Position numbers and translations under genes: made by a program. 64,000 bases of DNA, taken from the NCBI RefSeq assembly GCF_037042905.1, contig NC_087251.1:17734001-17798000 (forward strand). Direction: 5' to 3'. Shown piece by piece: positions 21,147-60,352 of this stretch (positions are counted from its first letter, which is position 1; each line of letters begins with the position of its first letter). The notes under the pieces are model-generated. The model saw nothing but the letters and a program-made list of their open reading frames with translations. It was not told the origin of the DNA and did not search any database. The DNA is from Lytechinus pictus (lineage: Eukaryota).

Positions 21147-21716
21147 AGGACAAGTCCACCCCATCAAAAAGTTGATTTGAATAAAAAGAGAAAATTCCAA
21201 CAAGCATAACCCTGAAAATTTCATCAAAATCGGTTGTAAAATAAGAAAGTTATGACATTTTAAAGTTTTGCTTAATTTCACAAAATAGCATATGCACATC
21301 CTGGTCAGTGTGCAAATGAGGAGACTGGTGATGTCATCCACTCACTATTTCTTTTGTATTTTATTATATGAAATATGGAATATTCTCCTCATTGTCAAGT
21401 GAAACAACGATAAATTCCTCCCTGAACCTGTTGAATTAGCATTGTTTGATATTATTTGGTTCAGTCAAGTTGGTCCTTATTGTCAAATGTGTAAAAAAAT
21501 GAAATATTGTATAATTCAAACAATAAAAAACAAAAATAGTGAGTGAAAGACATTGACTGTCTCATTTGCATGTCACTGAATTGTGCACATCACTGTTTTG
21601 TGAAAAATAAGCAAAACTTCAAAATGTTATGACTTTTGATGAAATTTTCAGCAGGATGCTAGTTTGATTTTTCTCTATTTATTCAAATCAACATTATTCT
21701 GGGGTGGACTTGACCT
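21147..21716. mobile_element. Complete Kolobok-like MITE (TTAA TSD, AG...CT termini)
   Basis: TTAA|AGGACAAGTCCACCCCA ... TGGGGTGGACTTGACCT|TTAA, with subterminal inverted blocks. Confidence 0.85.
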
Positions 21717-36757: not shown

Positions 36758-39700
36758 TCAGAGGGTAATTTCTGAGACATCACTTATTGTCTCCCCTCCA
36801 TGCACCTCTCCTTCACTGACACTCTCCTCTTCCTTTTCATCCAACCCAGCAATAGAGGGCAGAGTAACTTGGAATGATCTCTGGGTCATACGCTCCTCCC
36901 TCCCTCTCATACCAGCTCCAACCTCCAGAGAGTCTTCAGAAAACATCCCGCTCGTCCCAAAGAGACTCGAGCCTCTCGGAACGGCACCAGAGGCGTTCAA
37001 TCCCGTGATGGAGTTGTTGGTCTGGCCGAGTAACCGCGATCCTTCAAGGTCGCTGGTAGCTCCGCCCACACCTCCTTCTGATTGGCTGAAGGTTTGGCTG
37101 AGGTAACCCGACTGGAGGTAGGCATCCATGTTCATAGCATCTGGTGTCATGGTACGTGTGCCTGGATCACTGAGCATGGTGGAGTATAAACCTGATCAAC
37201 AGACAAAAAACAATGAATGATGTGGTAAAAAGGTGGAAATCATGACCCAATAGCAAACAAACTTGGTTACACCGTGAATCTAAAATGTCAATGCAGTTAG
37301 CTGTTAGATATAAAGGAATCTGCCTTCAGATCACTTCAACTTAATGGCGGACATAACTGGGGGGTTTCCAAAGTAGAATAAAAGCACTTTCAATGAGTTA
37401 TGCAATGAACCAGGTGCGTTGCTATGTCAGTACAATTGCATACATTATCCTTTGTTAGGTATACTTGAAGCCTCCAAATTAGAAATTATCATAAATAACA
37501 GCATCCAAACTGAATTGGTCTATAGGCATAAGCAATATCGGTCTGTTTTCTGCTAAGGGGTCCTTATTACATGACATTGGATATTGCACATTTGGCATCA
37601 AAACAATCTATTCATATCAACTGGATAATATCTAGACTTATATTATTTAATAATGACATGTATGAAGAGGAGTAAGTTTTCTCTGAGAATTACAGAATGC
37701 AAAGAACAGAGAAGAATGTTTCCTACTACAATGAATATCTCATGTATAGTCAGGTAGAGTGACATCTTCTTACTTGGTGGTATTGGTCTATCTATGAGTG
37801 TACCTCCAGCAGTCATATCAGCCTCAGCCAAGTCTCCTTCTCCTTCCACTTCCTCATCCTCTACCTGTTCTGGAGACCTTTGCCTTCCAACCTGAATCAC
37901 CCTTGCTACCGGACTAGGTGCCACTATCGCCTGGGAGGAACTGGCCTTTGGAGAATGGGATAGGAAGCTTTGATTGGAAGGTACTTCATTCGTCCTGATG
38001 CCATCTCCTGCAGGTGAGACAGGTCGTTCTTGCTCTTCGCCGTTGCTTCCGATTTCACCAAGAGATCTTCTATGGTCCATAGCACCCTTAGGAGGCTTTG
38101 ACTGGTAGGCCTCCTGGTAGAGGAGACGCTCAGCAGGTGGCATGAGGCTTGGACGTTGTCCCTCACTCACCTCCCCTACGCTGCTGCTGCTTGCATTACT
38201 GATGCTGTGTGGGGAGGAGGTAGCGCTTGGTTGCATTCCTACAGGATGAGGAACACCAGAGGGCACTTGGCGAAGCCTAGAGAGGAGGGCTACAACCGGA
38301 TCTCTGGTCAGCTTTAGACGGTTTGGGTCAACCTCACCTTCACTCCTGGGTTCCTCCTTAGAAGATAAACGATACAAAAAAATTGAGGAAAATCAATACC
38401 CTTAAACTGCAAGCAAGGCACCTGTGATAAATTGGAACACAATTGATAGACTTAATTGCAATTGCTAATCCAAATTGTTTACCAGTTCAATGATGAAAAT
38501 ACAGGTATAACTTTATCCAATGATGACGATGATTCACAGCACTGTAAGGAGCTGAAAATCCGTTTTTAAATTAACATAGAAAGGATTGAATCATTTATAT
38601 AAGGCAGTGAATGAGGTGAAATAAAAGAAAGAGAGGTAGATAAATGAAGATTACTAACTTTTACACACTATAATAGTGAAAGCATACCTGGTCTTTATCA
38701 GGGTCAGTTGGTCCTTTGACAGTGCTGGTTGTACTGCTCTGTGAACTCTCATCAAATGCTTCCATCTCTGGAACACCTGAGAAATTTTGAGGCAAAAACA
38801 ATATTATTCACTTCATTCAGTATTTGTTGATTTTTTTTTCTTTAAAGGCAACCCACATCCCAAAACTTTATGATGTACAGTAAGTAGACCCCCTAAGCGG
38901 ATTTGTTCAATACAATTGACACAACACTATTGCATTAATGATATGGAAAAGTTGAGGATATCATACAATATAGTGTGCAAATAATTTTATGTGGTGAAGA
39001 TGATGGGACACACCATTACTTTTTAGGTAATGTGGGACTTGTTTCATGAAGCAAATTCATTGACTATTGTTATAAACTATTTTCGGTAGGTAGAATATAA
39101 CACATTTAAACTAGAAAATTTTCGCAAGATTGTCTCTCACCAAATAGGGTTTCATCTGGTACCCTTCCCTCTTCCCTCTCACTGACAAGCCATTCTCCCT
39201 CAGATATATCCCTCCCCGTAGTCTGCGTAATGGTAGAGTCCGGAGGTGTTGACTCGGTAGTGGTGGAAGATTCCACACTGGGTGGAGCAGGGGTGGCAGC
39301 TTTGGGAGGGACAGGTAGAGGAGATGGTGTAGGGGATGGAAGACGTGGCTCGGGACTAAAATAAAAGTAGGAAATTAAAAAATACTCGCAAATGAAAGTT
39401 TGGGTAATAGCACAAATACACTCGTAGATGGAAGCATGTGACACACAACCATATTTTAGTTATTGATTGATTCATGTTTAACCTAGCAGGTTTCGAACAA
39501 TCCTACGGAATGAGATACATCAGGCAAGTCATTATGGTATTACATTGAAGTCACTGTAGACAACAGATTCATTTGGCTGTTTCATGATTAATATGAACTA
39601 GAAATAATCTTGAATTAAAGCAGCTAAGAATCTTATACCTCTTTTAACAAACTGACAGAGTTTTACTTACAGTCGTGTATTTTCAAATTATTTGTAGGGT

Positions 39701-42700
39701 ATGGGCCAAAGTCCACTCAATATCTATCTGCCACTTACAATTAGCACAAGCAATGGGCCAAGAATTCCCAAAATTTTTGCATGGTCAAAAGTTAAAAGTA
39801 TGACACACACTGAAACTTGTAATAACAATGGCAATTGCTCCTTTTTAGGCCAATTTATTGAAAGCATTTATGTTAAAGAGGTACAGATCCTCAGTAAATA
39901 TCTGAATGTAATCTAACTTGGTATGGACTTTGTTTTATCATGGGCCAAACTTGGAAGAATTGCATAAAATATTATGATCAACCCACCTTGGAGTACGCAA
40001 AGTCGTCTGGAAAGTATCCTCTTCTGGTTCTGATGCTACCGGACTCCTTGGCTCTGGGGTAGGAGTAGGTGTAACCATGGGCTCAGAGGGTACACCTACC
40101 AAGGGTGTGGGAGAGGATGGGGGTGAAGGGACCGGTGTCTGGGGCTCCTCCCCTGGAATTTGGGGTGGTGATTGGATGCTGACTGGGGGTGGGGTGGTGG
40201 GAGGGGTTGTGACAGCTTCTGGGCCTGGTGCAGCAATAGTGTTTGCCTCTGGTGAAAGGAAGGTGAGAAATAAAACATCTTGATTAATGTTAAGAAGACC
40301 AAGTAGAAAGTAGAAGCATATGTAGTATTAAAAGTATTACCTAATAAGTAGGACCTTTCAAAAGTTCATGAGGGACATATATTATGGCACAATGACAGTC
40401 AATCTACAATTTCTTGCTTTTCTCTCAAGTCAATGTATTTGCACTCAAAACATTACATGACAAGTATCACTTCGTTTTAGCCCCTTTCAGGAGAAATATT
40501 ATTATTATCAATAATATTATTATCCCATTTGGGATTTCAACAAAAGCCATTTACAAGACAACACATAAAGACAAAATGAATAGATGATGTGTACAATACA
40601 GCGCCATTTTACCTGAGAAAAGAGAAAGTAGCATAAAAAGTTTTTTTCCTCCAAATTCTGAACATTTGAAATCTCCTCACCTTCTTTGGAAGTATCTGAA
40701 TCTTTCATGAGATCTTTCCAGCTCTCTGTCTCAGACTCTGCTCCTCCTGATGCTGCCTCAGCTTCCCCTACCTCACTAGCCTCTGGGGTAGGGATTCGAT
40801 CCCTGGGGGTGGGGGATGGCTCCCTGGACAGAACTACAATGGGTGAGGCGGGTGGGGTTGGCTCTGGGGTGGGGATGGGTGAATGCCGGCCTAACTGCAA
40901 GTAAAAACATTAAATGGCAAGGTTGAGTGAGGATACACTTTCTTAATACTAATTTCTCTGTTAACTAGAGCAGCCTTCTGAATATATCAATCTTTCAAGC
41001 CTCGATTCTAAAAAAATTATACTTGGTGTATCCTATAAGAAATATTAATTACTAATGGGATATGTGTCAATTTAAGTTCAAAGTTTTCCTTACATACTGA
41101 TAAAATGAAAGTACATCAAATAATTTCACTTAAAATCAAAGCAAAAATTAATTAATTTGAATTGTAGCAAAATGTACACTTAGCCCGAAAATGTGTGAAA
41201 GTATTACATCTGCATATTTCAACTTTGGTATGCAATAAATGCAATCAAGACCCAAATTGGCTGGTGATATTCCAATCTTTTGTAAAGCTGTAGGCACCTT
41301 GACAAACAGTATTAAACCACAGCCCATGACCAATATGCAATATGCATAACAAACATCCAGATAAACTAGAACCATTATGGCACATCATTCCCTTCATATC
41401 AATGCATCATCTATATACTTACAGGCTGTGGGGTAGGCTGTCTGGCATCTTGAGCAGTCGGCATGGCAACAGATGACCTTTCTCTTTGATGTTGACCTAG
41501 ACACAGGGAGATCTTTTCTTCCAGAACCTTCTGGACGAGACTATTCACTAGGGTGGGGTCTACTGGTTGTCCAGCATCCACAAAAAACTGCAGACCCCCT
41601 CCACCAAGTGCACCAACTACGGAAATAAAGGGGAAAAAGTAGTTGCATGTGTTGCTGAAATTTATGGTGAAATATATTCATGAGTAAAGTAAAATGTTTA
41701 CGAAAATGTTATAAAACATTTGCTGCTTAATTCGTTGAAAGTTTTAGTTGGGCAGCTCTTCACTTTTCAATTGGGTCATGTTGTAGTGGATGTGTCTACG
41801 GATGCAGAGCTCAAAGTGTTGGGTTTGAATCCCACTGTGGTATAAAGACACTGATCTACATTCCCAACACCACGTCACGTAAAGAAAATGGGTACGCGAC
41901 AGAATCATAGACTGGCTAGAGCCCTTAATTTGCAGCCATGTTATTAAGCATGGAAACAATTCTGTGTTGCAGTCCCAGCATTATGTAGGATCCAGAGAAT
42001 CCTCTAGGATGATAAGGCACCTTGTCAAGAGTTTCCAATCATCAAAGTTCATCATGGACAACATAACAGGGAATACCAGAATGCCGCGATGAAGATTCAT
42101 AAAAGATGGATTCCTGTTAGAAGACTTTTGACAAGTTGCCTGAGTAAATCCCTGTAAATCACTATATCAAATTTGTTTGTGGAGTATATATCTAATGATG
42201 ACCATAAGTTCAGGACATACTTAAAAATATTATTTACAACAGGTCCTTTTGTACATAATAGAGGTATTTGCTATCATTACATATATGACAAAAAGTAGAA
42301 ACCCCTACACTGGCTGAAAAGTAACATCCATAAATTCTTGAGAACACCCTTTAATAATCTTACCAACATGATCCGAGTTTTCTGAGGATGATGGACTAAC
42401 AGGCCTGGCTTCATGACTGGTGCTTGGCTGTTGATGTCTCTCTGACTGCCTAAGATGAGTCCCACTTATTAATCGAGACATCAACTCTTGCTCAACCCTG
42501 CAAATAAATCAGAATATAAAATTATTTCTCCTCTGATCTATGTTTATTTCTTTTCATGATATATATATATATATTTGTTTAATGACTTTCATGTTCATAT
42601 TTTTTCCAAGCATTACAAACAACATAAATTTCAGATTGTGAAATGCATAAATGATAAGTACAAATTTTCAAGAAATAAAAGAACATATTTTCAAGAAATA

Positions 42701-45700
42701 AAAGAACATAAAGATACTCTCGACAATCTGTATCTGTGTCAAAGGGGTCATGTTTGCTTAAGAGATACAATTTACAAAGAAATCAAAAGGAAATATGTGA
42801 ATGGAAATAGCAAGGTGACTGATAAACTATACATTAAGGGGTGGTTTGGAAAAGCCTCTGTCACTTGGATGTACAAAAATAAAGTCAGGTGGGTATTTCA
42901 TCAAAAGTCAAGGCTGTGCCTTTCCACAAGCAGCTTTTCATTGGAATTACTTTCTTTCTCTTCCCTTCTTTTCACTTTTTTTTAAAGACTTAAATCTATA
43001 TTTTTCATTGGAATAACTTTCTTTCTCTCCCCTTCTTTTCACTTTTTTTAAAGACTTAAATCTATATTTGTGATATGCAGTATTAATGAAGGAACCATTC
43101 ATTACCAGTCTACTGCTCTTGTCTGGAGCATCTCCATGCGTCTGATACCCTCTGCTAGCTGACCTGATGATGACTGGATACCAGCTAATGGGGGTTGGGA
43201 TGGGGGTAACTGCTGGGGTGGAAATGGTGGACCGTGGTAGGAGGGTTGTCTTGCTGCATGCATTCCTTCCATTGAGATACCAGGGATCTCTGGTGATGAG
43301 GGTTCCTCTTCCTCCTCCTGTTCTTCTTCAGGTGGCTGAATAGAATGTCAAAATAGAGTCAAGGTATGACTTCAAACACAATCATTTATAGTACATTTTT
43401 ATTTTTATGTCAAATTGTATCTATCGTCATATTGTATATTCATTTGTATATTTGTCATATTGTGCATAAATTGCTTTGATGTTGAATTGAGTTCAAATAA
43501 ACAAACAAAACTAGAACTTGAACTTTCATTCAACATGTATTGTAGAGGCTTACTGATACATCATGCATTCTTCCTTAGACCATGAGTGGTCCTGCAAAGG
43601 ACCTACTACCAACATATTTCTCTTCAAAATTCATACATCCTGCTATACTTAAAATATGGCAAAAAGAAGCTGCTGAAAACTGCTTATCTAATAAAAGAGA
43701 GCCAATGGAGTAAATTACAAAGTCAAAAGGGGTCTAAGCTTTTGATCCTAGCAGAATATAAATGGTATGGTATTTATTATATCATGCATCGCAGTAACAA
43801 AGACTGAATTGCACATGGATATACAATATTAAAATGTACAGTCTCAAAACAGTGGAATTATTTACATAATTAAAAAGTACACATATATCACAAACTGAAT
43901 GCAATAAATAACATACTACTGCGTATTAAACCATACATATTACTTACGATAAAAAAGTAATGTAAAACACACCCATAATTAAAACAACAAAGAGGAAGAA
44001 GAAGAAAAGGAATAAGAAAACGAAGAAGAGGAGAGAAAAAAAAGAAGAAGAAGAAAAGAAAAAGAAGAAAAGAAGAGGGAGAAGGAGAAGGGGGAGAAGA
44101 AGGAGGAGGAGAAGAAGATGGAGAAGAAGAAGAAGAAAAAGAAAAAGAAGAAAAAGAAGCAGAAGAAGAAGAGAAAAAAAGAAGAAAAGAAGAAGAAGAA
44201 AAGAAAAGGGAGGAGAAGGGGGAGAAGGAGAAGATGGAGAAGAAGAGGGAGAAGGGGAAGGGGGAGAAGAACAAGGAGAAGAAGGAGGAGGAGAAGAAGA
44301 TGGAGAAGAAGAAGAAGAATAAGAAGAAGAATAAAAAAGAGGGAGAAGGAGGAGGAGGAAAAAAGGAAGATGAAGAGATGCTATAAAATAATTAAAAAAA
44401 ACTTATGCACATCTGATCCCCATGTTTCTATATTTCTATTTCACTCCACCAACTGATCAAACCATAGAAAGCAGACAAATAATTTCAGGAAGGCCCACCA
44501 TATAGGGCATCAAACATTCATTATTTTTTTTTTAATGTTCATGTCAATTTAAGTTTTAACAAATAGAATATATTAATTGTTGGATCTCAAAAAGATTCCA
44601 CAATATTTAGTATTGAAATATAAAGAGAAACTAACCTTTGCACTTGCTAGTCTGCTCTCTTCAGTCACTTGGCCATGGGATGGTATGTCCTGTATATCAC
44701 ATAGAATAAAGATGGGTAAAAGAGCTTTTTCACAGTCACCATCATTACAAATACTTCTTACACATTTATATCAAAATCATTCTTAAATTTTCACTATTAG
44801 AATACCATATGAAAAGCACGTTGTGAACACATAAGGTGCATTGATATCATATGCATGTTGATAAGGAGTTTAAATTTTTATATAATAAATAAATAATCTT
44901 TTCTAAACATTCCAAATCATAAGGTTCTAATACTAGAATAATGGTGTTGTGTAAAATATAAGTCATATGCAGTATATTTACAATTCTTCTCAAAATACTA
45001 GATATGGAATATGAAGTTTAAAAACAAGTAGACTTACAGGTGTTAAAATATCACATTCATTACAAGATAGACAAAAACATGTACCTTGTCTAGCCGATTA
45101 GGTTGTTGTGTTCCAGGGGAAGCCCTTTCTTGAGATGGAGCTGGAGTAGCTGGAATGGAATCGATGTCCACATTGGGTAATCTCTGAATAGAAAAGAAAG
45201 ATATAAAAAAAGATATCCACCGATATAAATAATATATGCAAATCATCTTTATCAAAAACAGAAATATACGAACAAATACAGAAGAATAATAATATTGAAC
45301 CAAGGTCCATGGAACGATGAATCACTACGGGAGAACAGTTCAAAGATTCCTTGTGTGAGATATTGTTGTTGTGGTAAATAAAAAAGTTATCTAAGCTTTA
45401 CTACAATTTTTACTATGAGAATGAAAGTGAATACTCAGTAAAAGTGACAGTCACATTTATGAACAAAATTGATATTGAAAGGCATATTGTCTTCATCTTT
45501 CACAGGCAGTTGATAATGTGCTGACCCCAGGGTAATTGAAAGAATCAGCAGGTGGAGCACAGCTAACTCACTCTCCCATCTCTGCATCAGGAATCTGTTC
45601 AGGAAAGTGAGATGATAACTTTACAATATGTGGAAAAAGTTTTGGATATACAGTGCAAGGCATCACATTGGTTTATAAGAAAACTTTTTCTACCCTGGAT

Positions 45701-48700
45701 GATGGACAACAGCTGTTACATGATAGCCATCCTAATATGAAATAAAATTAAGTCAAATGAAAGTTAAATATAATATGCCAAATAGAGGTACATTAAACAC
45801 ACATGTACATTGCACATTCCATGATATCTCAACTCACCTGCACAGTAAGGTCCTGTTTCTTGGTTTCCTCCTTGTTCTCTTCCTCATTCCTGACATCGAT
45901 CAATGCCACGTTGGGCAACTCTACCGGTCTAGCAGGTGACCCTCTCCCATCACTGATAATGGTAACAGGATGGGCCATCCCTACCCCTAACCTTGGCTCT
46001 CTAAGGGGTATGGCCATGGGGATGAGCTGGCCGTCTGCTGGACTGGTGTGCTGGGTGGGGCCAGGACCCGTTGGGTAGGGGTTGAAGTAGTACTGGGGTC
46101 CAGAGGTAAAGGGTAATTGGGTTCCTACCCCTGCACTCCTAAGTGTCTCTGCTTGCGGTCTGTTTGGTCTTTGGGCTATGGTGTTCAAGATATCAAAGAG
46201 ATGAATGGCAAATTTGTGTTGAGATTAGTTGCCAAGGAATTCTGCCATAAATGTACTAGAAATTGAATAAAGTTTAAAAGTGATTTTTTTTTGTACAATG
46301 CTAGTCTTGTACTTACATTTTTAATGCCATGAGCAACATGCCTGATAGACTTGAGTGCTCTATTTCAATTTGCTGCCATCAGCATAATAATAATATCATT
46401 ATCAACAGTATCATGATCAACATCACCAATGCCATCTTAATGGTCATCATCATCATCATTGTAATCATCATCATCACCATCACAACTATCATTGTCATCG
46501 TCATCATCATCATTACCAAAATCATCATCATGAACTCCTCTCTTAACAATATCATACTTGTATAAATTGCATAAATAGAATTGATGATACAGAGATATAG
46601 AGGCATAGACAAGCATGAACAGAGAGAGAAAGAGACTTGTACCATGAACAGGAGAGGCATGATGAGCAGCCATCTTCTTAGTCTTTGTAGGCGTCCGGTT
46701 GGCAAAGTGGAGATAGGGTGCATCCTTCAATGTTGACCTTTGTGACTGGAGACGGGTGTGGCCATAGATGTGTTTCAGATAACGTTCATCATCCTGCTGT
46801 GTACTTCTTGGTTTGGAAGCTGGTTGGGGCTATGGAGAGAATAAATCAGAACAAGTAACATTAGGTTTATAACTCTATCTGGCATAAAAACATTTGTTTT
46901 GTGTGAAGGATGCTACTACGAAGATAAAATAAAAAATTGAACGATCTCTGCTTACATCATTACTGATGTTTGATTGGTCATCCAGGTTTTATGACTATTT
47001 GAATAATTACCCTACGATAATATTAATAGAAATTGTACTCTCTTTTTTAGCAAATAAACAACAAATTCATAAGTAATTAATTGGAAAAGAAAAAATATTG
47101 TGTTCAAAATAAGGATATTTACTGGAGATTTTGGGACAGTTGTTCTTTCTCTCAAGTTCTCCTTGTTCCTTTCAGTCACATCCTCTACTTGCTCCTCCTC
47201 CTTTCTAGGTTTGCGTAAACCTGTGTCTATCTTCGCCTGGACCTTCTTCTTGCCAAACTTCCCAAGGACTTGCCCAGCTGATTGTTGGCCAACTGGCTTT
47301 CTTGTAGGAGGTTGTTGGCCTTTTGGCAGTAGAAGGTGTGGTCTTTGAGAGCTTTTGTCTGGAAGAAGCTTAGTTGGAGGTGATTGGCGACCACTTGGTT
47401 TGCTGATGTGATGTCTTCCTTGATGAAGTTCTCTCTGTGGGATGCATACAATAAGAAAGTACAAATAAAATTTGTATACAGGCAGTATTTTTCATTTTTC
47501 TTTATTAACCACATGCATACCTGCCAACCTTTGGTAATAAAAAATCAGTATCAAAGTTCCGAGGGCACCGAGCGGGTGTCCGGTCCGCTCCAACGGTATA
47601 GGGACTCTTTGCATTTTCAGCATGTAAAAGTAGCATTTCCCTACACTTTTTAAAGCAAATTTACCCTCATTACCACACCAGAGGATGACCTACATGTAGG
47701 GTCTACCTTTATTTATCAATTCAAAATTTAAAAAAAGTCTTTAAAATATCACTTTTGTGACATATAAACCACCCAGTTTCATTCAGGTGTGATATATCTA
47801 TATAGATTTAGGGATAATTTTTCTTGTTCATCAGAGCTCTCTAAAAACTTTGATTTTGAGCATATTTTTGTGAGGCCCTCTATTGGTGGAAAGTGAGATT
47901 GATGCAGATCTTCATCTCCACACATTCTATTTTCAATTAGACAAAAAAATAATTTCAAGATTTTATGATGAATTTAGATTTAAGTTATCCCTACTGTATT
48001 AAAAACTTACGAGCCAAAAAATCAAACATTTATTATCCAGCCTATCAATCATGAATCAAGAGAAAATAAGCCAAACATTGACATTGTCTTATTCATGTTA
48101 TTTCACCACACTGGGGTTACTGACTGAGGACAAGGTTATATCATAACCTACATTTGATAAGTGCTTGTTGGTAGAAGAAAGCAGATTTTCAACCATGACA
48201 AAAACGGAGCCGAAACTAACGGCTGCATGCGCCTGACCCGCACCCACCACTGCACTTGCGGTGCGCTGGTATAAGACGGGGAGGCTGAGGCGCAGCCACT
48301 GGGCGGGCGCCGGGAGTTCAGGCATGGTTTAGGAAAGCGAAGCAAGTAAAGTAGATTTGGCGTTCGGCTCCGAAGGCTCAACCCGAGATCGAAAGTTGAT
48401 CATCTTTCTTCCTCAAAAAATTGACAATTATTCGAAAAATAAAGTACAGATCAATGTTAAAATTGCGTAGGGATAGATCTAACTTAATTGCGTCGGTACG
48501 CGGCCGGCGAGCGGGGGCCGGTGTTCAACGACCTGCCGTTCATATCATCAGCAGACTCAGCGATATACCACTGTAATCACCAACACACTCTAGATATGTA
48601 CGATACATCACTAACTCACTCCCACACTACAAAATCATTCGGCGACATGGGCAAAAACCTCAAATAAAAAGTGAAATTTTCTTACCTAAATCACCTTGTT

Positions 48701-51700
48701 TCGCGTAAAAAATATCACCATCGGTGATTCTTAACATCGTAGTTAGGAAACAAGGGGTCTAAAAAGGTTACTCTTTCACGGTTTTTCCGATGTTCGTGGA
48801 TTATGAAAACATGTCCTCACTAAAAACTGGCTCTTTCGCTAGCCAATGTCAGCCGCCATTTTTTTTCGGAAGTCAACGCTTACGACAACGCCTCAAAATG
48901 TAGCGCCCTAAGTGCTGCCGTTGCGTGTATGCTCGTTAATTTTCACATGTATTTGCAATGGAACTGCGCACGTTTAAAGTCGCTCTCTGTGTATATCGTG
49001 TAGCTAGCGCATTTGCGTAGCCATGCGCTCCAGTCGTTTATGCGTTAGTCGCATCTTACAGCCGTGCATATGTTAGTCGCATTATACAGCCGTTTCAATA
49101 ATTTCAACACTATATTGATTAACCCAAAAATCTGAATTTTGGTTTTAAAATTCGGAATTCGGAATGGAGGTCGAAAAATCGGTATATTTCCGCCAAAATC
49201 GGAATGGTTGGCAGGTATGCACATGTATATGTAATAAATGTCAGTTTATAATGTAGTACATAATTTAACTTTAGTATTGTATCTATGTACAATATGGAAA
49301 GAAAGTTGCTTTGCTTTAGATCAAATAACTTGTTTACCAACTAAGTATTAAGTTGGAAAGCAGTTATGAAACTGCCAATGCTACCCTGTATAAATAAAAC
49401 TACAAATAAATAAATAATTACGTGATGGCATTCACGATATCTTAATAATCTTGATGAAAAATCTGTCATAATTGAGATAAAATATTAAGGACAGACCTGA
49501 AAATACAAGTAGGGAAAGAAATGGTGAAGTAGGGATGCATATTGAATGAGACGTTAAAGAAGTGCAGCATGAGAAAACCTGCAAACTAGATCAGATGGAC
49601 CACAAGCGAGTACACTACAACAAACTGGCTCGTTAGGAATGTACAAGCTGTTTAATACCAGGGTGCTGGTCCACTCATCTAATCATTTTATATGTTGAGA
49701 ACTAGCCTAAATTATACCTAGTATATCCCATGTGGACCGATTGTAATGAATTCATACCTTGATCTCTGCATCAATAGCAGCTATTTGTTCATCAACAGCT
49801 TGCTTTATTCTTGTAAAGTCTGAACCATCTCTGCAAATGGAAAAACAAAGTGTATCAAGTTTGACAGAACTCACACACTTGAAGATGAAGGGCCATGAAA
49901 CAGCTTAGTGACTGATTGTTAATCATGATTGATTGTACACAGCAGCCAATGCGATTAATTCTACAAATTGCTACATTTGGGTTAAAAAGTCCAGGGGGTG
50001 TTTCACAAAGATTTATGTATGACTTAGAGTCGCACTTAAATGTCTAGTTGCGCGTGGTATAAAAGACATGCCAAGAGGACGTGCACTACTGCGTATTGAC
50101 CAATAAGGTTGTGCATTGCATATAATGTAATTGAATCTTTGTGAAACACCCCCCAGGATTGGCATTTTGTGAAAAAAAATCAGCATCAAATCCCTAAACA
50201 TAATTGTGTATATATTCAAAGTAATAATAATGACATAATCAATGAGCACTACCTTGGAGTGGAAAGATACACAATGAAAGAAATAATAAGACAAGAGGAA
50301 AAAAGGGAAAGAAAGACGATGGATGAAGAAAATGGTGAGCAAGACAAAGAGGAAAGAGGATGTGAGAGAGAAATAGAAAAAAAGAGAGAGAGAGAGAGAG
50401 AGAAATACTCTACAGTGCGTCCCAGAAAAAACGAAACAGAGATTAAGCGATGATTTACCATAATTTAATCACAAATACAATAGACAAATGACCTACCAAT
50501 GTAAAGCTTAGAATCTCCTCTTTCATCTGATATTACTTAGATTATTCCTCATTCACGCATGAGTGAGCAAAAATAATTTGAAGAGGGGATACCAAAAAGT
50601 CATTTGGCGGGCTGTATCTGGGTTTCAAAAAGAAAACCACATTTTAAAAAAGTTCAATATCTGCTCTTTAATTTGATACCTCAATTAAAGAAAATGGTCA
50701 AGAAAAAAACAAAGTTCTGGTTATTTGAAATAAGGCTTGAATTTCCATAATTTCATTAAATAAACGTGTTTTCACCGGTTTCCCACAGAAGCTATCGCAT
50801 GGTTAACAAAAGACTTAATGCATGGCTGATCGTCAACAAAACAGAGTGTCGAGTGAGTTTGAACGCTAGCCTGTAAAACCTCTTCATTTTATGAAATTAT
50901 TGAAATTCAAGCCTTATATCAAATAACCAGAACTTTGTTTTTTTCTTGACCATTTTCTTTAATTGAGGTATCAAATTAAAGAGCAGATATTGAACTTTTT
51001 AACAATTTTGTTTTCTTTTTGAAACCCAGATACAGCCCGCCAAATGACTTTTTGGTATCCCCTCTTCAAATTATTTTTGCTCACTCATGTGTGAATTAAA
51101 AATAATCTAAGTAATTTCAGATGAAAGAGTGGATTCTAAGCTGTACAATGGTAAGTCACTTGTCTATTGCATTTGTGATTAAGTTATGAAAAATCATCGA
51201 TAAATCTTGGTTTCGTTTTTTCTGGGACGCACTGTATATTGTGTGATAGAAAAATAGAAAGAGAAAGAGGGAGTACAAAAAAGAAGAATGTGGGGGCATA
51301 TCCCAGAAGGAAAAATGGAGAATGATTAATACCTATCTACATGTACTTACCCTTCCCTACAGATGCTCTGGATAACTTGGTAAAATTGTTCATCATCGCG
51401 CGTCCTAGCAACCGTCTCCTGGTTAGTTTCCAGCATCTCCTTTGATGTCTGTACTTTCTTGAGTAGTGCCTGAGCCTCGGCACACATTGGTGTGAGGACG
51501 GGGGCATTGTGCTGGGAGGGGGACATTGTGATATGGGTACGGGGTAGAGGTAGGAGTGCAGGTGCAGTCATCTGAACGTCATGAGTTCTCCTCTACAGTC
51601 AAAACCAAAGACCACATATTTACATTAGATCATATGATAACAGTGTAAAAAGCTAAATGTTAACATTTTCATAAATAGTTGAATACTGCATTTATAGTAG

Positions 51701-54700
51701 TTATTTTCAAGGTGGCATTATTTTTACTCATTTTGTGAATCGATCCTCACTAATTTCCAATTTCAACAGAATGATACAGAGAAAAAAAATCCTTGCAAAG
51801 CAAATTGTGTGGCACATTCAGTAAGTGGTTTTCTGTGTTTATTTCACAAAATTGGATTGCTTTATACAAGGCAACCATCAATCTGTAATTATTTTCAGTA
51901 TTCTTATGTAATCTTGAAAAGGGGAGATTAATTAAGACAATATTGGACTCAAGATGAATCCAGGTTTGCTAGTTGCTATATATCCTCAATAGAAGTGCTC
52001 TACCAGGTAGTGTACAAATGATATTCAAGTTAATTACTACTGTGTGTCAATTTGCACATACCTAAGTCTGACTTAAGGACGTTCCACAGTTAAGTTTGTG
52101 CGCATCACGATCTGCGCATATTTTACACATTGCGCGCTGACGTCACAATGGATGAACTTGTGATTTAATCAGCTGGGCATTTTCACGGTAACTGACATTA
52201 CACGGCACAATGTTTCCACACCTTTCATTGTGTGTATCTCTAAAACAACAAATGATGGGAGTTTGCTTTTGATAGAGTTAATAAAGTGAACCTTGCTGTA
52301 TACTCTGATACTAAGTTTTTCTATGTAACCACATTTTTTTACGCATCAGCAAGCAAAAATGTGTCGGTAACTGACATTACGAAAAAGGACATGCAATTTT
52401 AGGGTGTTCATTAAAATTGGAATATCTCATGTCCCTGAGTAGATAGAGTAATAATTTGAATATGTAAATATACCTCCGTTACTAGGTTAAGATGTGTCAA
52501 AATATTAAACCATTTGTTTTTGTCTTTTGGGGGCTATGATAATTTTTCCGCAACCATGCTGGTAACTGACATTACGGTAACTGACATTACACTTAATTTG
52601 CCATAGAGATAACACATGGAAGTCAAATGTGTGGAATCATTGCATTGTATCTTCTGTGCAGGGCTTCACATGAAAGTGAGCTTGGTGTGGAAGTATACTC
52701 GAGTTTCTAGGAACATTTCAATGAAATTTTTAAATCTTTTTCTTAATTCCTTTCTTTGATTTGAACATTTTTATCATTACTTGTCGGTAACTGACAATAC
52801 ACATTAACACTTACCAGTGCTATATGATTTTCAAAGGCATAATTTTCTTCGTACTTATATGTGAGGCTTTTTAAAATCATAAAAGTTTCATAATACTTCA
52901 CATTTTGAATTATCAAAAGATAAGAAATGTATGTTTTACTTACTCGGGGGGGGGGGGGGGGTCATAGCAGCTACATGTTTTCCTATAGTAATTTAATATT
53001 GCATTGACTGTACACATGGATTTTTCTGACTATACACCCATAATATATTCATCAGTTTTATATTGAATTTTTAAACCTTTTCCTTCTCCAACCTCCCCCT
53101 CCCCTCAAAAAAGGCAAAATGAATAAGGGTCTCCTCCCCTAGGCTACACGTACCCCTCCCCCGAATCTCATGCAGCCATGTAGTTTTATTGATTTCTATT
53201 CTGGTCAGTGCAAGCAATGCTTGTTCATATCTGTCAGATTTCTATTCTCTTCATAATTTGTTTAATCATTTTCTTTGCTAATTTCTTTTTTAAGCTGTCA
53301 ACAAAAAATAAACTCCAGCTTCTAAACTGAAACTGAACTATTTGTAAATTAGAAAAAAAGAACACAGTTTTAGTAGATCCATGCAACATTGATCAGAACT
53401 GTCAAATTTCACTTTTCATCTATACTTGTATATAATTGTATCACACATCCACACTACTAACAGGCATAAAAACCAGGGGTGGTATTCTGAGATCCATTTT
53501 ATCTCAGATAAAATAAAACATTTTATCTCCGTTAAAATCAGTGAGATAAAATACCCTTAAAATCTCTCCGAATTGCTATTCTGAGAACAATTTTATCTTC
53601 ATTTTATCTCTGTATAAGACACACCTATTTTTTAATCAATATCCAATTAGAAATGCGCTTTTATAACTCTCTCATTTCACTCAACCAATGGAAATCCATT
53701 CCGCTAGGAGGTGTGGCGAAGGAGTGAGATTGCGTCAAATTTGTTGACTTCAATACCCTTGCACTATACGCTTGCGCATCTTTACAGAGATTTCTTTTTA
53801 ACAAAAATGGCAATACTCTCATCTTTTTTTCGAAGTCTATATCGCATCTTTTCAAGCATCATTTCAAAGCGCAAGCACATCACCCGCGTTGCAATGGCCA
53901 GATACGCGATGGGTATGTCTACGCAGCCACTGCTCTGTTGCGTATCATCATAAATACGCAAGATAAAATTTTGGATTTTATCTGAGAGATAAAATGTCAT
54001 CTCAGAATACCAATTTCATTTTAAGAGATAAAATAAAATATTTTAAAGATAAAATGACCTCAGAATACCGCCCCAGGAATTTACTTTTAGCGAGGCAATG
54101 CTCAAAAGAATCCTAGAAACTAAAAAAGGGACCCTGGAAATCCCCTTCATCACAATGTTAAGCTTAAAAAAATATTGCAGATTTAGGCAATACAATAGCA
54201 AGCTCCTTCTAGTGTGACTTGACTTGAATAACAAGTATACAATACTTCTTCACCATAAAATTGACCACATATTTGCATTTCAATATTGGTAACCAACGTT
54301 TTATCATGGTAACTGACATTACATCTCGGTAACTGACATTACATTTTCCACTTGGTAACTGACATTACATATATTCGATGGTACCCTATGGCTTCATTGT
54401 TAATTGGTAATCTTTAATTTTGGTGTAGAAGGGAGGGGTGTTACCTAGAGAGGAAATCTACCAAGTTTCATATAATTTATCCTCTTTTCCAAGAAAAGAG
54501 AAAAAAAAGTTCATGTTTTCGGTAACTGACATTACATACCATATCAAATATTTCATCAATGTTTTTTTATCAGATGAATGAATTACTGGTGTTTCTTTCT
54601 GTGGGATTTTAAAAAGTGTTATAATAGCAAGCTAAATCACAGGCGAAAACATTATGATCAAACCTGTTCTTTAAAAATCTGTCAAAACAAATTATGTATC

Positions 54701-57700
54701 AATATACTATTTTCAGCACTAATTTGTATCCATACTTTGGCAGCCATTTTGAAATAAAAAATGGCTGCCAGAGTCGGAAAAAAATTTTGTCTCAGAAACT
54801 TCAGGTCTTGTATTATTAAAAAACATAAAGCATTTGACATGAATATCAACTTGATTTTTTTGCCTCTGTGTCCATCTGTGGTGAAAATGCCCAGCTGTAG
54901 GTAATGTGAGCTGATTTTCTCCTTATCTACATTAACTGCAGATCTGATGTGTTATTTGGGTTATCTTTTAAGCTCTATAGCAAAAAATCAAGCGCATGGA
55001 CCCATGTTAATTTTTGCATATTTGGAATATTTAGGTGCTAAGATATCTATGTGCAAAGTATGATAAAAACAACATGGATTTTCAATGTTTGGGAGCAAGA
55101 CTACGGAACCACTCGCATTTTAGACGGTATTAACAGACTTTTGCTTGTTTTCGGTGCATTTTGGGCTGTTTCAAGCCAATGCGCAATACTTTGGACACTG
55201 ATAATTTGAAAACGAGCACATGGACCCCAAATTTGTAATGTCTTAACTTCTTTAGAATATATTTCTCTACAAATCTAGAGAGTATGATGAAAATGACATG
55301 GATTTTGAATGTTTGGGAGCAGGACTAAGGAACCATTCGTATTTTAGACATTTTGGACGGTATTAGACTTTTGCCCGTTTTAGGCGCATTATAGACTGTT
55401 TAAAGCCAACTCGCAACACTTTGGACACTGATAATTTGAAAACGAGCGCATGGACCCCATAATTTAATCATCGTAACTTCTTCAGAATATATTCCTTTAC
55501 AAATCTAGAGAGTATGATGAAAATGACATGGATTTTGAATGTTTTTTAACAGGACTAAGGAACCATTTGTATTTTAGACATTTTAGACGGTATTAGACTT
55601 TTGCCCGTTTTAGGCGCATTATAGACTGTTTTAAGCCAACTCGCAACACTTTGGACACTGATAATATGAAAACGAGCACATGGACCCCATAGTTTAAACA
55701 TCTTAACTTCTTCAGAATATATTCCTCTACAAATATAGAAAGTATGACGAAAATGACATGGATTTTGAATGTTTGGGAGCAGGACTAAGGAACCATTGGT
55801 ATTTCAGACATTTTTGGACGGTATAATCAGACTTTTACTTGTTCTCGGCGCATTTTGGGTTGTTTCAAGCCAACTCGCAACAGTTTAGACACTGATAGCT
55901 TAAAAACGAGCACATGGACCCCATGTTTTTAATATTTTAACGTCATCAGAATATATTCCTCTGTAAATCTAGAGAATATGATGAAATTGACATGGATTTT
56001 GAATGTTTGGGAGCAAAACTACGGAACTATTCGCATTTTAGACGGTATTATTGGACTTTTGCACGTTTTCGGCGCATTTTAGGTGGATTTCAATATTTTC
56101 AAGCCAACTCGCAACAGTTTAGACACTGATAGTTTAAGAACGAGCACATGGACCCCATAATTTTAATATTTTAATGTCTTCAGAATATATTCTTCTACAA
56201 ATCTGGAGAGTATGATGAAAATTACATGGATTTTGAATGTTTGGGGGCAAAACTACGGAACCATTCGCATTTTAGACGGCATTATTAGACTTTTGCACGT
56301 TTTGGGCGCATTTGGGCGATTTTCATGCCAACTCGCATCACTTTGAACACTCATAGTTAAAAAACGAGCACATGGACCCTATATTTTTAACTTCCCTACA
56401 CCTTCGATATGCATTCCTCTACAATTTAGCAGAATTTGATGAAAATGACATGGATTTTGAAAAAAGTGCAGCTTACAAAATACTTTTTTATTTATTTTTG
56501 AGTAGATTCACGTCTTTGAAGATTTGCTTTTTCCAAGTTTTTGCACCATTCTTGCCAAATGAGGGCGCTGCTTACTCCAAATATATATAGTTCTACCAAT
56601 TAAAAGACTTTCTCTTTCTTTTGTATACACTTTGTTATATATCTTGAAAATTTGATGAAGTTTGATGAGGTATCTACTGAGTAAAGATGATTTACACTCA
56701 TTTGGTGAATTCGTGAGGTCTAAGAGAGGCATAATTCTCTTGATTGCGCAAGATTGCATATCATTCAAATACGGCGACTTTTTTTTTTTGGCACTTTCAT
56801 TATGCATAGATACCAAAGTAACTCTCTGCAAAATTTGGTGAAAATGACATGGACTTCATTTTAACTGTGGAACGTCCTTAAATCTTAAGAAAAACCCCTA
56901 CATATAATATAGTTACCAAATAATCATCCAGAGGTGCTGGTTCAAGCCAGGCTTGTTTCCTTCTGTCCATATCCCTCTCTGCTTCCTGCATTGTGTAAAT
57001 AGAATTATAAACATTAATTTATGTATGAAATGTTACACATTTCTAACAAAGATATAATCTATTACCTAATTTCTGAGTTTCTGTATTTACAGGAAAGAAT
57101 CTGTAATATTCAGATGAAATGCCTATCAAACAGAGATTTCATACAAATTTGGAGCAATTCGAGCAACAGAAGGAAAGTGGATGTTTAAATGGCTTCAAAT
57201 GATAAAGGAACAGATGAGAGTAGTATGAATGGGGAAAATCCTATAATAATAATAATTATCATGATTGACATAGCAAGATTGAAATAACACTTCAAACAGA
57301 AGCTTGACCTTGTGATTCATAGCCTGGAGATTATTTATCAAGCTCATCTCCCACCCATTCTTTACCAAGCTATTTTAACTTTGGGAGATTTCAATGCTTT
57401 GAACACTACAGAAAAAAACCAAATGAACAAATCCAAAATTTTCTTCTTTGCGAGGATCATAATGTGCCCCAAAAACTTTACACTCAAGATTACAATCCTT
57501 CAAAAACTTTAAAACTTTACATTTTAATTAATATGTGGATTACCTGTCTTAGTTTCTTGGATATTTCTTTGTAATGCCTGTCAGGTGATACTTCTTGAAC
57601 AGCAGTCTGCTTCCTTGCATCATCTTTTAATCTACCAGTCTGTTAGGATGAAAAGAAGAATAATATTATTCATCCACCTTCTTGACAAAGTTTGGGGTGA

Positions 57701-58036
57701 TTTAAAACTGTGTAGACACCAAAGTAAAAGTTTTGATGGGCCAACTATTGTGCACCAAAAATATGGCGTGTGAAATGGTATTATATCTAACCTGCCTGGA
57801 TCCTCCACTGAAACTGCTGACATTCACACTTAAAGATTGATTGGTGTATATGTGTCTAACCAAATCCCTGGTCAAAATCAAATTTGAAACACGAAGAGGG
57901 AAGAGGGATGATACAAACCTGTATAGTTTGTTTGACTTGTTGGTTAAGTTCTCCAAGTTGTTGGGCTACCCTCTGTGCTCTTTTGACTGCAGGGCTAGTG
58001 GAGCCTTCTGGTTGATGATGAGACCCATTGTTTGGC
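36758..58036 (-). CDS. KIAA0586: TALPID3 (centrosomal/ciliogenesis protein), 3' 19 exons, ~1313 aa in window, 5' partial
   Basis: Exons (minus): 57919-58036, 57544-57639, 56917-56985, 51351-51592, 49758-49830, 47123-47434, 46643-46829, 45838-46175, 45085-45183, 44636-44689, 43106-43335, 42364-42497, 41423-41616, 40681-40894, 39987-40248, 39141-39355, 38688-38776, 37774-38356, 36758-37191. All are GT-AG and phase-compatible. TALPID3-like motifs: YLKHIYG..QRSTLKDAPYLHF, LIPMAIPL, LPNVDIDSI, YHGPPFPP, WVEQELMSRLISG, GLQFFVDAGQPV, a PTP-rich region and repeated SEGE. Confidence 0.88.
42935..43067. repeat. Tandem duplication, 2 x ~67 bp
   Basis: TTTTCATTGGAAT.ACTTTCTTTCTCT.CCCTTCTTTTCACTTTTTT.TAAAGACTTAAATCTATAT occurs twice. 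Confidence 0.85.
43990..44378. repeat. Polypurine (GAA/GGA)n tract
   Basis: About 390 bp of almost pure A/G in a TALPID3 intron. Confidence 0.9.
46380..46532. repeat. Degenerate (CAT)n microsatellite
   Basis: ATCATCATC-rich run. Confidence 0.8.
47516..49219. mobile_element. 1.7-kb non-autonomous TIR element with 6-bp TSD
   Basis: CACATG|CATACCTGCCAACC ... GGTTGGCAGGTATG|CACATG (14-bp perfect TIR). The interior is CpG-rich and has no transposase ORF. Confidence 0.85.
49995..50153. mobile_element. Short MITE, CAG TSD (Harbinger-like)
   Basis: CAG|GGGGTGTTTCACAAAGATT ... AATCTTTGTGAAACACCCC|CAG. Confidence 0.8.
50413..51234. mobile_element. Complete Tc1/mariner-type foldback MITE (TA TSD, ~340-bp arms)
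   Basis: TA|CAGTGCGTCCCAGAAAAAACGAAAC ... GTTTCGTTTTTTCTGGGACGCACTG|TA; long inverted arms around a ~130-bp spacer. Confidence 0.9.
52175..54892. mobile_element. Nested 2.7-kb TIR element with AGCT duplication (Sola2-like, tentative)
   Basis: AGCT|GGGCATTTTCAC ... GTGAAAATGCCC|AGCT; contains nine copies of GGTAACTGACATTAC. Confidence 0.75.
53477..54073. mobile_element. Innermost nested MITE, CAG TSD (Harbinger-like)
   Basis: CAG|GGGTGGTATTCTGAGATCCATTTTATCT ... AGATAAAATGACCTCAGAATACCGCCC|CAG. Confidence 0.8.
54985..56460. repeat. Tandem array of ~230-bp units (~6.4 copies)
   Basis: Marker CATGGATTTT at 55073, 55297, 55527, 55757, 55991, 56225 and 56449 (spacing 224-234 bp). Confidence 0.92.
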
Positions 58037-59105
58037 CTGCATGAACAGATAAAAAATGGTTGGAAATCATTTTGCTACTTGCAAAAACAAATTTCAATTG
58101 TTATTTATGATTATTTACCTGGGAAACCCTATTACATCAATTTTTTTTTTTTTAATTAATCTTCTATTACTTTCATTTCTTTGTAGAAGGGGAGGGGCAT
58201 TTAATTCTCCCCTACAACCAATCTGCACCCCCTCCACAAGCTACAAGTCTCCCCAGCCATGTTCCAAACATGGCCAGCATTATGTGTCTGTCCCTTTGCA
58301 AGAATTCCACAAATTGATACACACATGTATATTCAAGTAATTGTATTTGATTTATCACATTTCCTCAAATGTATTTTCAGTAAGTGTAGCGTCTATCTTA
58401 ATTCTCCTCATGAATATTAAAATCTTTTTACCAACCTTATTTTCTAACTAGTAAGTATAATAATATATCATATTTATGAAGAAAGAACTTAAAACTGGAG
58501 ATATGTTTTCAGAGTGCAATGCAACATTCATACTCAATGTTACATCCTGGCTGAGCAGTTCAAACAGACACTGGCTGATTAGAACAAATAGCACCCTCTC
58601 TTGGTCAAATATGCAAGTGCATTTTCCCCCGTTATGTACAAGACACAAAAGACCATTCTAGTTCTAAAATCTTATATATGGGCACAGAAAGATAACAATT
58701 AGAATTGCCCCCCCCAAAAAAAAAAAAATTGGACACATTATATAATTACCTATTCAATTAAAGGTCAATTCCATCCCAGAAAAATGTTGATTTGAATCAA
58801 GAGAGAAAAATCACACAAGCATAATGCTGAAACTTTCATAAAAATTTGATAAAAGTTGCGGCATTTTAAAGTTTTGCTTATTTTTCACAAAACAGTTATG
58901 TGCTTATACTCAGAGATATGCACATCCTGTTCGGTATGGAAATGAGGGGACTGATGACATCACACACTCACTATTTCTTTTGTATTTTATTATATGAAAT
59001 ATTTTAATTTTCTCCTCATTATCATGTGTATCAAAGTTTTATTTATCCCTGAACATGTGGAATTACCACTGTTTTAACATTTTGGGGTTCAATCAAGTTG
59101 GTCAT

Positions 59106-59811
59106 GGTTAATGAATAAGTGTTTGGTACCGCAAAATTGTAAAATAGCCTTAAAAACGGATATACTGAAGCTTTTCGACATGCACTCATCGGAGTAAAAT
59201 TGCATGAATGACTTAAACGCTAGAGAAAAACAATATATAATAGAACCAAAATAGACAATGGACGCTAAATAGCGAGCCGTGATTGGTTGTCAAGTAAACA
59301 AGTTAGGCTTGGTACCAGCCGTATATTGAAGCGAAGCAACAAAATAACGCAATGGTTCTTACGAACTCCTTGTGGCGGCACAGAATCGGGTCTGTTAGCT
59401 GGATATATGTTCCCTCGAGCATGCGCAAATGAGTGAAACACCTTGCTCGGCTGAGCACCTTAAACCAAGATGAACAGTATTGTTCAGCAAGTGGTTAGCA
59501 ATATAGCCAAACTACTACCACCATCTGTCGCAGTACTAGTGGTACGTTTTCTGCATGCGCGCCGAGGTCGTGAACGCGCGCTAATTCGACAATTTCGGAT
59601 AGAGGCGGGCACATGTTGGCTAATGCGGTCTGCTAAACGTTGGGTTGTACTGTAAGCCCTATGTACCGAGCTTCACAACGGCACTTAAACTCGTAAATAA
59701 CATTACTGCTATGAGAGATAGGGAGCACGTCCTTTCGAATAGACGAGAACATTCTGTGTGTAGTAAATACCACACATGCTTCAACGCTAGGGAAGGCACT
59801 AGATATTGCTT
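59106..59811 (-). mobile_element. 5'-truncated Penelope-like retroelement: frameshifted GIY-YIG endonuclease plus 3' region
   Basis: 8-bp TSD TTGGTCAT (59098-59105 and 59812-59819). Minus-strand translation across frameshifts: KDVLPISHSSNVIYEFKCRCEARYIGLT / TQRLADRISQHVP / IANHLLNN / FKVLSRARCFTHLRMLEGTYIQLTDPILCRHKEFVRTIALF. Confidence 0.85.
59163..59196 (-). ncRNA. Minimal type I hammerhead ribozyme-like motif (U4C variant)
   Basis: Minus-strand RNA UACU-CCGAUGA-G(UGCAUGU)C-GAAA-AGCU-UC-AGUA: stem I UACU/AGUA, 1-bp stem II, palindromic AAGCUU stem III, UC cleavage site. Confidence 0.65.
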
Positions 59812-60352
59812 TTGGTCATTGTTGTCATATCTGTATTAATTGAAATATGGTATAATTCAAACAATAAAAAAAAATAGTGAGTGAGGAACATCATCAACTA
59901 TCATTTGCATATTACTGAGTTGTACATATAATAATTTATCCCATTTTGATGAAATTTTCAGCGTTATGCTTGTTGGATTTTGTCTATTCTTCGAATTAAC
60001 AGTTTTCTGGGGTAGACTTGACCTTTTAAGTGTGGTTATATTTTGTGTTGCAGTTCCCCTCCATATCTCAATAGAACTTACTTTGTAGATATACATTTAT
60101 ATTTATATTCATTGTGATTACATAAGTCCATTATTATATTTCCCTTTCTTTATTAATTTTCATACAATATATCAATAATTTTGTCTTTAAATATATATTT
60201 TCTACATCAAGATTTGATTAGGGCTGTTCAAATTGATATCTTTATTGTTTTCATGAGAAGTATTATCATTACAATTAGTTCATCATAATTAATTTTTCCA
60301 TATTCTTTGTTTTCATTCAATCATTATTTTATTCCAATCATTGACAGCCATT

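Follow-up and report, generated by a model that had tools for sequence, protein, structure and literature searches.

Probable endonuclease-primed insertion of a truncated Penelope-like copy into a Kolobok-like MITE near TALPID3 in Lytechinus pictus

The stretch of Lytechinus pictus DNA that we analysed, hereafter the window, is 64,000 nucleotides long and carries the TALPID3 (KIAA0586) gene on its minus strand. Over the 60 residues searched, a minus-strand exon was identical (100%) to the TALPID3-like protein P0151 of L. pictus and 97% identical to its L. variegatus counterpart. P0151 mapped to the minus strand in 17 pieces (77-100%) between 56970 and 36761. The public models of TALPID3 begin at 56970 (P0151, L. 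pictus) and at 58097 (P0152, L. variegatus). The subject of this work is a retroelement insert that lies upstream of every modelled coding exon, about 1.0 kb from the 5′-most (58097), inside a MITE. As the first-pass annotation had stated, the insert and TALPID3 have the same orientation, both being on the minus strand. The features of the locus are collected in Table 1.

Table 1. Features of the insert, its host MITE and the neighbouring gene, in window positions
Feature	Position	Strand	Basis or remark
Coding exons of TALPID3 (KIAA0586) according to public protein models	36761..58097	-	Pfam PF15324 on 7 exons; exon map
Empty paralogous MITE, pre-insertion reference	21147..21716		whole-length alignment, single site
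TTAA, left target site of host MITE	58758..58761		sequence; 350-387 contigs per DNA run with loose ends before 58758
Host MITE, left part, AGG... terminus, long imperfect TIR	58762..59097		76% to 21143-21475
8-bp target-site duplication, copy 1, TTGGTCAT	59098..59105		single TTGGTCCT in empty MITE copy
Insert 3′ terminus, predicted first ~19-20 codons of the element's own ORF (pseudo-LTR end and 'tail')	59106..59163	-	N-terminus profile E=1.4e-4
Degenerate minimal type-I hammerhead-like motif	59163..59196	-	descriptor match, position in relatives
CCAAT box and TATA-like element in pseudo-LTR (weak)	59234..59286	-	1 match in window; 17/100 shuffles do as well
GIY-YIG endonuclease, C-terminal piece, catalytic E region, P.LC..KEF end	59342..59488	-	42/49 identical to P0154 593-641
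Endonuclease middle piece, catalytic R, first H of CCHH	59505..59645	-	32/47 identical to P0154 536-582
End of RT-EN linker and GIY-YIG core (VIY..CxC..YIG at 59701-59657); 5′ truncation point 59811	59651..59809	-	43/53 identical to P0154 483-535
8-bp target-site duplication, copy 2, TTGGTCAT	59812..59819		sequence
Host MITE, right part, ...CCT terminus	59820..60024		71% to 21470-21721; T then TTAA at 60026-60029

The TIR arms of the host MITE (58760-58853 and 59935-60026) were 81% alike. When the insert was taken out, the entire MITE aligned to 21143-21721 (73.7% over 605 columns, E=1e-101). A second paralogue at 7421 was more decayed and also lacked the insert segment, such that the near-full paralogues in the window were empty in 2 of 2 cases. 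Both the TTAA duplication and the 5′-RR..YY-3′ termini that define Kolobok elements (PMC9587614) were found in the host MITE, and the non-autonomous Kolobok transposons described in the available text of that paper share its TIRs, its length of about 570 bp and its very high copy number. The empty copy reads TTAA-AGG...CCT-TTAA, whereas the filled copy departs from this pattern by one extra T before the right TTAA. We refer to the host as a Kolobok-like MITE. Another element of this kind probably occupies about 63206-63590, a high-copy, TTAA-bounded segment with purine-first inverted ends and a depth of about 1e5 in organism A, the relative of the window species, ~5.5-7% apart in single-copy DNA, from which the sequencing runs used for comparison were derived.

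Contigs of three organism A DNA runs were placed on the window at 85% likeness, which yields depths that are not true copy numbers. In these data the MITE bins reached 1e5-1e6 (the left MITE bins 0.5-1.6 million) as compared with 1e2-5e3 for the insert bins. Organism A contigs also joined 59063/59103 to 59825/59850 with MITE-like letters between. The far deeper MITE bins and the two empty paralogues indicate that the MITE normally lacks the segment, as the first-pass annotation had supposed. One contig (record 3) ran from the unique flank 74 nt into the right TIR, and thus at least one organism A sample carries the MITE at this site. Another contig (record 17) stopped at 60054; organism A contigs break inside the MITE, and none of them shows an empty or a filled orthologous allele. 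Farther along the same flank, the minus strand at 60345-61263 holds the 3′ part of a LINE-type element that carries an (ATTCA)n tail, has no Pfam match and by its motifs is taken to belong to the L2/CR1 group. This fragment is absent in organism A, in which the same two contigs (records 3 and 17) jump from 60344 to 61264 with about 49 letters between.

The insert itself (59106-59811) comprises 706 bp enclosed by two exact copies of TTGGTCAT. The empty MITE copy carries the insertion site once, as TTGGTCCT at 21470-21477, and contigs and reads of organism A likewise read ..GGTCCT at this site. Thus both copies of the duplication contain one letter that is foreign to the MITE family, which argues for a genuine local duplication made on insertion. 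The chance of finding the exact TTGGTCAT 8-mer at one fixed place is about 2e-5. By comparison with the empty paralogues the duplication was clean and the target had suffered no loss. The GC content of the insert was 43.5% with a CpG observed/expected ratio (o/e) of 1.14, as compared with 35% and 0.42 for the window and with CpG o/e values of 0.25 and 0.48 for the two MITE halves. No inverted pair linking the insert ends was present among the 25 longest of 129 repeat pairs between 58500 and 60200, and no poly(A) was found on the insert. These results uphold the earlier description of a CpG-rich, 706-bp segment without terminal inverted repeats or poly(A), flanked by an 8-bp duplication, whose removal restores the host MITE, and they confirm that the insertion is nested in the MITE and that its target-site duplication is local.

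The minus strand of the insert contains the last ~160 residues of a Penelope-like ORF in frameshifted pieces, with 117 of 149 aligned residues identical to positions 483-641 of P0154. This protein is the closest intact relative (641 aa, 79%) and carries RT and GIY-YIG domains in one ORF (RVT_1, E=8.5e-7). The peptide read by the first-pass annotation exists and is split over three minus-strand frames. Frame breaks occur near 59650, 59502 and 59489; two organism A contigs (records 15 and 16) were 5 letters shorter than the window near the first of these, and a few codons of P0154 are absent from the insert at the third, a loss that appears to have arisen between short repeats. A phmmer search with the first piece (59651-59809) identified 452 proteins at E<=0.001. 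When 14 of these relatives were scanned with Pfam, 3 carried RVT_1 and 6 carried GIY-YIG, two of the latter (P0088 and P0089) at or above the curated cut-off for PF01541. The four raw insert pieces matched no Pfam family. The earlier identification of this sequence as the C-terminal GIY-YIG endonuclease of Penelope-like elements is supported by homology, the similarity to such endonucleases being strong.

The CCHH motif was recognisable in the insert as VIY..CRC..YIG followed by His residues in RI.QH and in HLLNN. The last conserved Asn of the nuclease is Cys in the insert and likewise in 51 of 54 long relatives, a difference of this subgroup from the Penelope/Poseidon clade. A Foldseek search with a structure model of the relative P0045 (pLDDT 78) returned no match at E<=0.001; the GIY-YIG domains of UvrC and I-TevI matched weakly (E 0.19-0.83, with a probability of up to 0.77 for UvrC). 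Sequence search of the PDB gave three weak RT matches and no structure of a Penelope-like element. Metagenomes scanned with P0154 alone gave 72 pattern matches, none of which was confirmed, and a scan with an alignment (A4) gave no locus near the insert in DNA (best, 67% over 121 nt). The insert encodes no RT and no intact nuclease and cannot mobilise itself, and most likely it is without function.

We compiled 54 long relatives, consisting of the 52 proteins of 820-890 aa among the 120 matches listed together with P0154 and P0053. CxC between GIY and YIG was present in all 54 and each of the two His residues in 52. The endonuclease was located behind the RT in 52 of 54, [YF][VI]DD was found in 52 and DKG in 50. 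A linker zinc finger of the Neptune/Nematis (CX2-5CxxC) or Hydra (CxCX5C) type was present in 0 of the 54 and in 0 of 86 among the first matches with enough upstream sequence. The clades of Penelope-like elements are defined by endonuclease position, linker finger, CCHH and DKG/DKT (PMC8557442). By these definitions, as given in the available text, the combination of CCHH, a C-terminal endonuclease, no linker finger and DKG points to Penelope/Poseidon, a clade to which the Perere10-related families of rotifers and flatworms described in PMC3846280 also belong (PMC8557442). We therefore regard the insert as a putative EN+ element of this clade, assigned by motif only, and the insert itself retains just the last ~35 aa of the linker, the RT being absent from it. 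Neptune and Nematis were rejected because their CX2-5CxxC finger between RT and EN was found in 0/54, Naiad and Chlamys (N-terminal endonuclease, no canonical hammerhead) because the endonuclease is C-terminal in P0154 and in 52/54, and Hydra (no CCHH, CxCX5C linker, DKT) because CCHH was present, CxCX5C occurred in 0/54 and DKG in 50/54. A Naiad selenoprotein reading was also rejected, as the endonuclease is C-terminal and the stop near 59495 is a frame break at which P0154 has Cys-Ala.

Like members of Penelope/Poseidon, the insert or its relatives have a C-terminal GIY-YIG domain with CCHH, no linker finger, DKG and (in the relatives) an ORF of ~840 aa, as well as a pseudo-LTR of ~200 bp that includes the first ORF codons, an optional tail of ~30 nt, an 8-10-bp target-site duplication and heavy 5′ truncation. 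In contrast to these elements, the insert lacks the RT and a second or inverted pseudo-LTR, and its frame is broken.

Truncation at the 5′ end, which the first-pass annotation had proposed, was apparent from homology and also from organism A. Mean depth in its three DNA runs, again no measure of true copy number, was 5310/2777/4686 over 59210-59450, 933/352/604 over 59451-59691 and 78-271 over 59710-59762, as compared with ~26-100 for single-copy contigs. A depth that falls from 3′ to 5′ is the pattern expected from 5′-truncated retrotransposition. Moreover, two contigs of organism A (X7) matched up to 59812 and continued for 53 and 103 letters unlike the window. The nuclease region amounted to roughly 8-17 single-copy depths. 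The insert differed by 10-13% from organism A contigs, which exceeds the divergence of single-copy DNA (~5.5-7%), and the family may therefore predate the species split.

At the other end of the insert, the 3′-terminal frame is open to the target-site duplication and extends back to an in-frame ATG at 59181. From the 10 full-length relatives with the best scores we took the N-terminal 45 residues to construct a profile, which was searched against 2903 six-frame window peptides. This frame ranked best of the 2903 (E=1.4e-4), followed by a peptide with E=0.063. An earlier, broader profile from all 52 long relatives also ranked the frame first, at E=0.21 only; the profile of the 10 closest relatives was made afterwards. 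The match indicates that the insertion terminates in the initial ~20 codons of its own ORF. Thus a pseudo-LTR containing the start of that ORF forms the 3′ end of the insert, a feature absent from the first-pass annotation. The start codon is uncertain, as the insert has ATA where relatives have ATG. Counted from the codon that corresponds to this ATG, the insert extends for 58 nt, which exceeds the long end of the relatives by 3-6 nt, and its last 4-6 nt before the duplication are unexplained. Direct and inverted pairs of pseudo-LTRs (194-218 bp) were found in the relatives L002 and L047.

We also scored 3′ ends at 10 ATG sites in the larger family of relatives among the metagenome loci. Two read on into the ORF, and the others ended at +15, +23, +25, +26, +26, +44, +47 and +56; the relatives ending at +44 and +47 were mutually alike to about +55. 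Rotifer Penelope elements have pseudo-LTRs without and with a 'tail' (PMC3846280), and two internal reverse-transcription starts account for two end classes of an Anolis element (PMC11167929). Our two end classes, ~30 nt apart, match the tail as described in the available portions of these two papers, and the 3′ end of the insert agrees with the 'tailed' site, as predicted by internal priming of reverse transcription.

Adjoining this terminus is a hammerhead-like motif, also absent from the first-pass annotation, that consists of a TACT/AGTA stem I, a core with U4C, a palindromic AAGCTT helix III and a UUC site. Its stem-loop II of 9 nt is closed by G-C and contains mismatches. A descriptor, written after the motif had been seen, gave one match in the window and 0 in 5000 shuffles. 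Rfam search of 58700-60100 gave four chance-level matches and no hammerhead, and free folding of four stretches over the motif gave no hammerhead fold (z-scores 0 to +1.2). A covariance model (stem II only) built from the hammerheads of 17 relatives, with the window excluded, showed covariation of 0.671 (0/500 shuffles) in sequences chosen by hammerhead pattern; the window motif scored E=0.69 and ranked 2 of 27. Position in the relatives was better evidence than these scores. The same N-terminus was found on the expected strand in 6 of 80 metagenome loci (L001, L002, L003, L005, L038 and L047), and in all six CTGANGA ... GAAAA(AA)GCTT directly precedes the ATG; the six represent about two independent families, five being 83-99% alike. 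A further weak match on the minus strand of L001 lacked the motif and was taken as chance. Hammerhead motifs occurred at 16 places in 13 of the 80 loci. Head-to-head hammerheads in L044 (2958-3054) and paired direct hammerheads in L014 and L016 mark pseudo-LTRs of Penelope-like relatives.

The motif resembles the minimal type-I hammerheads of metazoan Penelope-like elements described in PMC4209133 in its core boxes, its G10.1-C11.1 pair, its short helix I and its palindromic helix III, which suits dimer folding. It differs from them, as far as that text describes, by U4C, by a helix II of 9 nt in all with mismatches (typically 4-8 bp) and by its presence as a single copy with no cis partner. 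Since U4C lowers hammerhead activity (PMC3088659) and single minimal hammerheads are reported to be inactive in vitro (PMC4209133), cleavage by the motif would be unlikely; the Anolis hammerhead needs protein for cleavage (PMC11167929). In PAc, the Poseidon element of Anolis carolinensis (PMC11167929), the hammerhead likewise overlaps or adjoins the ORF start, and genomic 3′ ends lie within the ORF start at two sites a tail's length apart, as in the family of the insert. PAc initiates at about +111-118 with its ORF starting at stem II, as stated in the available text, whereas the long end here falls at about +55-58 from the codon after stem I, or +76 from the ATG in loop II, and the hammerhead is degenerate. 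The insert is not one of the tandem retrozymes with which bioRxiv 10.64898/2026.07.22.740005 is concerned.

Taken together, we estimate at about 0.92 the probability that the insert is a dead, 5′-truncated EN+ copy of the Penelope/Poseidon clade that arose by endonuclease-primed insertion and subsequently decayed. According to this model, the RT-EN protein of an active copy would have nicked AT-rich DNA inside the MITE, and priming would have occurred within a tandem transcript at a point ~55-60 nt downstream of the start of the next unit's ORF, which corresponds to the distal, 'tailed' start site. Reverse copying would then have traversed the pseudo-LTR and the endonuclease region, ending in the linker once ~700 nt had been copied. 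A second nick at a distance of 8 nt, followed by fill-in, would have generated the target-site duplication, and small indels would have accumulated afterwards. The 4-6 unexplained letters at the 3′ junction would also fit a piece of such an element, captured as cDNA or genomic DNA, that was inserted during repair of a DNA break, with fill-in of the staggered break producing the duplication, and a palindromic, high-copy MITE may be prone to breakage. Nevertheless, we consider break repair very unlikely, as the 3′ end coincides with the long terminus of the family in relatives, the duplication is clean with no loss of target, and duplications of 8-10 bp have been reported for Penelope (PMC3846280).

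Two further readings were considered. Target-site duplications of 8 bp are typical of hAT elements, and the insert could in principle be a non-autonomous hAT-like DNA element that carries a Penelope-like fragment by chance. Its ends, however, lack terminal inverted repeats, homology to Penelope-like elements extends to within 2 nt of one end and a few nt of the other, and the depth gradient across the insert already largely refutes this reading, which we regard as highly improbable. That a longer variant of the MITE regularly contains the segment internally is barely credible. Only two near-full paralogues were available in the window, but both lack the segment, the MITE bins of organism A are 100- to 1000-fold deeper than the insert and its contigs bridge the site, and a locus-specific letter is present in both copies of the duplication. 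Insertion of a truncated Penelope-like copy by its family's own machinery thus remains the reading that we favour.

We also considered the position of the insert with respect to TALPID3. The match of TALPID3 to its Pfam profile covers nothing before position 317-376 of 1261, and an acceptor-like AG is present at the exon at 58036; upstream exons are therefore probable, as is an intronic position of the insert. The N-terminal ~20 residues of P0152 resemble intron read-through. Thus TALPID3 5′ exons are probably missing from the annotation, and it is reasonably likely that the insert lies in a 5′ intron of the gene, being otherwise just upstream of it. Its transcription within the TALPID3 pre-mRNA, which the first-pass annotation held to be probable, is plausible. 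No upstream TALPID3 coding exon was recognised in 60600-64000. Within that interval, 63617-64000 is single-copy, present in all three organism A DNA runs and without a long minus-strand frame, and 63789-64000 has an RNA trace on the TALPID3 strand in organism A (0.31 v 0). This segment may be a non-coding or short upstream exon.

Lying in sense orientation and ~1 kb ahead of the first modelled exon with coding sequence, the insert could have been co-opted, such that sense transcripts extending into TALPID3 initiate in its pseudo-LTR or the pre-mRNA of the gene is cleaved by its hammerhead. The CCAAT and TATA-like motifs are present, and CpG o/e remains at 1.14 despite the 10-13% difference from organism A copies. 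A looser promoter pattern occurs just upstream of the hammerhead in L002, L005, L015 and L038, with any match in 18 of 80 loci. We nonetheless give co-option a very slim chance. The promoter pattern is at chance level (17/100 shuffles), and the same exon is the first in the gene models of two other sources. The core carries U4C, which lowers activity (PMC3088659), in addition to a mismatched stem II, single minimal hammerheads are reported as uncleaved in vitro (PMC4209133), and the Anolis hammerhead is protein-dependent (PMC11167929). In an RNA run of organism A, coverage of the exon bin 57764-58004 was low and strand-specific (0.61 v 0.09), whereas the RNA of this relative covered the two strands of the insert bins about equally (16.7 v 18.5; 3.3 v 3.8), as would be the case for reads derived from other copies. 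If co-option were true, the pseudo-LTR would have been domesticated as a sense-strand promoter or self-cleaving element at the 5′ end of a ciliary gene, resulting in an alternative start or a truncated transcript in this urchin, and an open, promoter-like state would be reflected in the CpGs that it has kept.

Animal genomes frequently contain nested and truncated copies of transposons, and as a decayed Penelope-like copy the insert represents an ordinary event of limited biological weight and modest value as a clean specimen. Because the host MITE is high-copy, both ends of the insert are fixed to the base, and its 3′ end agrees with the internal-priming model reported in vitro for the Anolis element in the available text of PMC11167929. 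The insert marks a sea urchin Penelope/Poseidon family, the ends of which could test that model in an invertebrate. We found no literature on hammerheads of sea urchin Penelope-like elements, and the family was undescribed in the titles or abstract beginnings among the matches listed for Lytechinus, Penelope and Kolobok; Repbase, Dfam or the supplements of PMC8557442 may already hold it.

Several other features were observed in the window. A tandem array at 55057-56461 has a period of 230 with 6.1 copies and 82% matches. Two copies of a long palindromic element (3053-3732 and 50411-51236) were 92% alike over 679 nt, and further palindromes occur at 3731-3965, 24754-25041 and 4734-5168. Other CpG-rich islands are located at 24001-25000 (o/e 1.19) and 48001-49000 (o/e 1.17).
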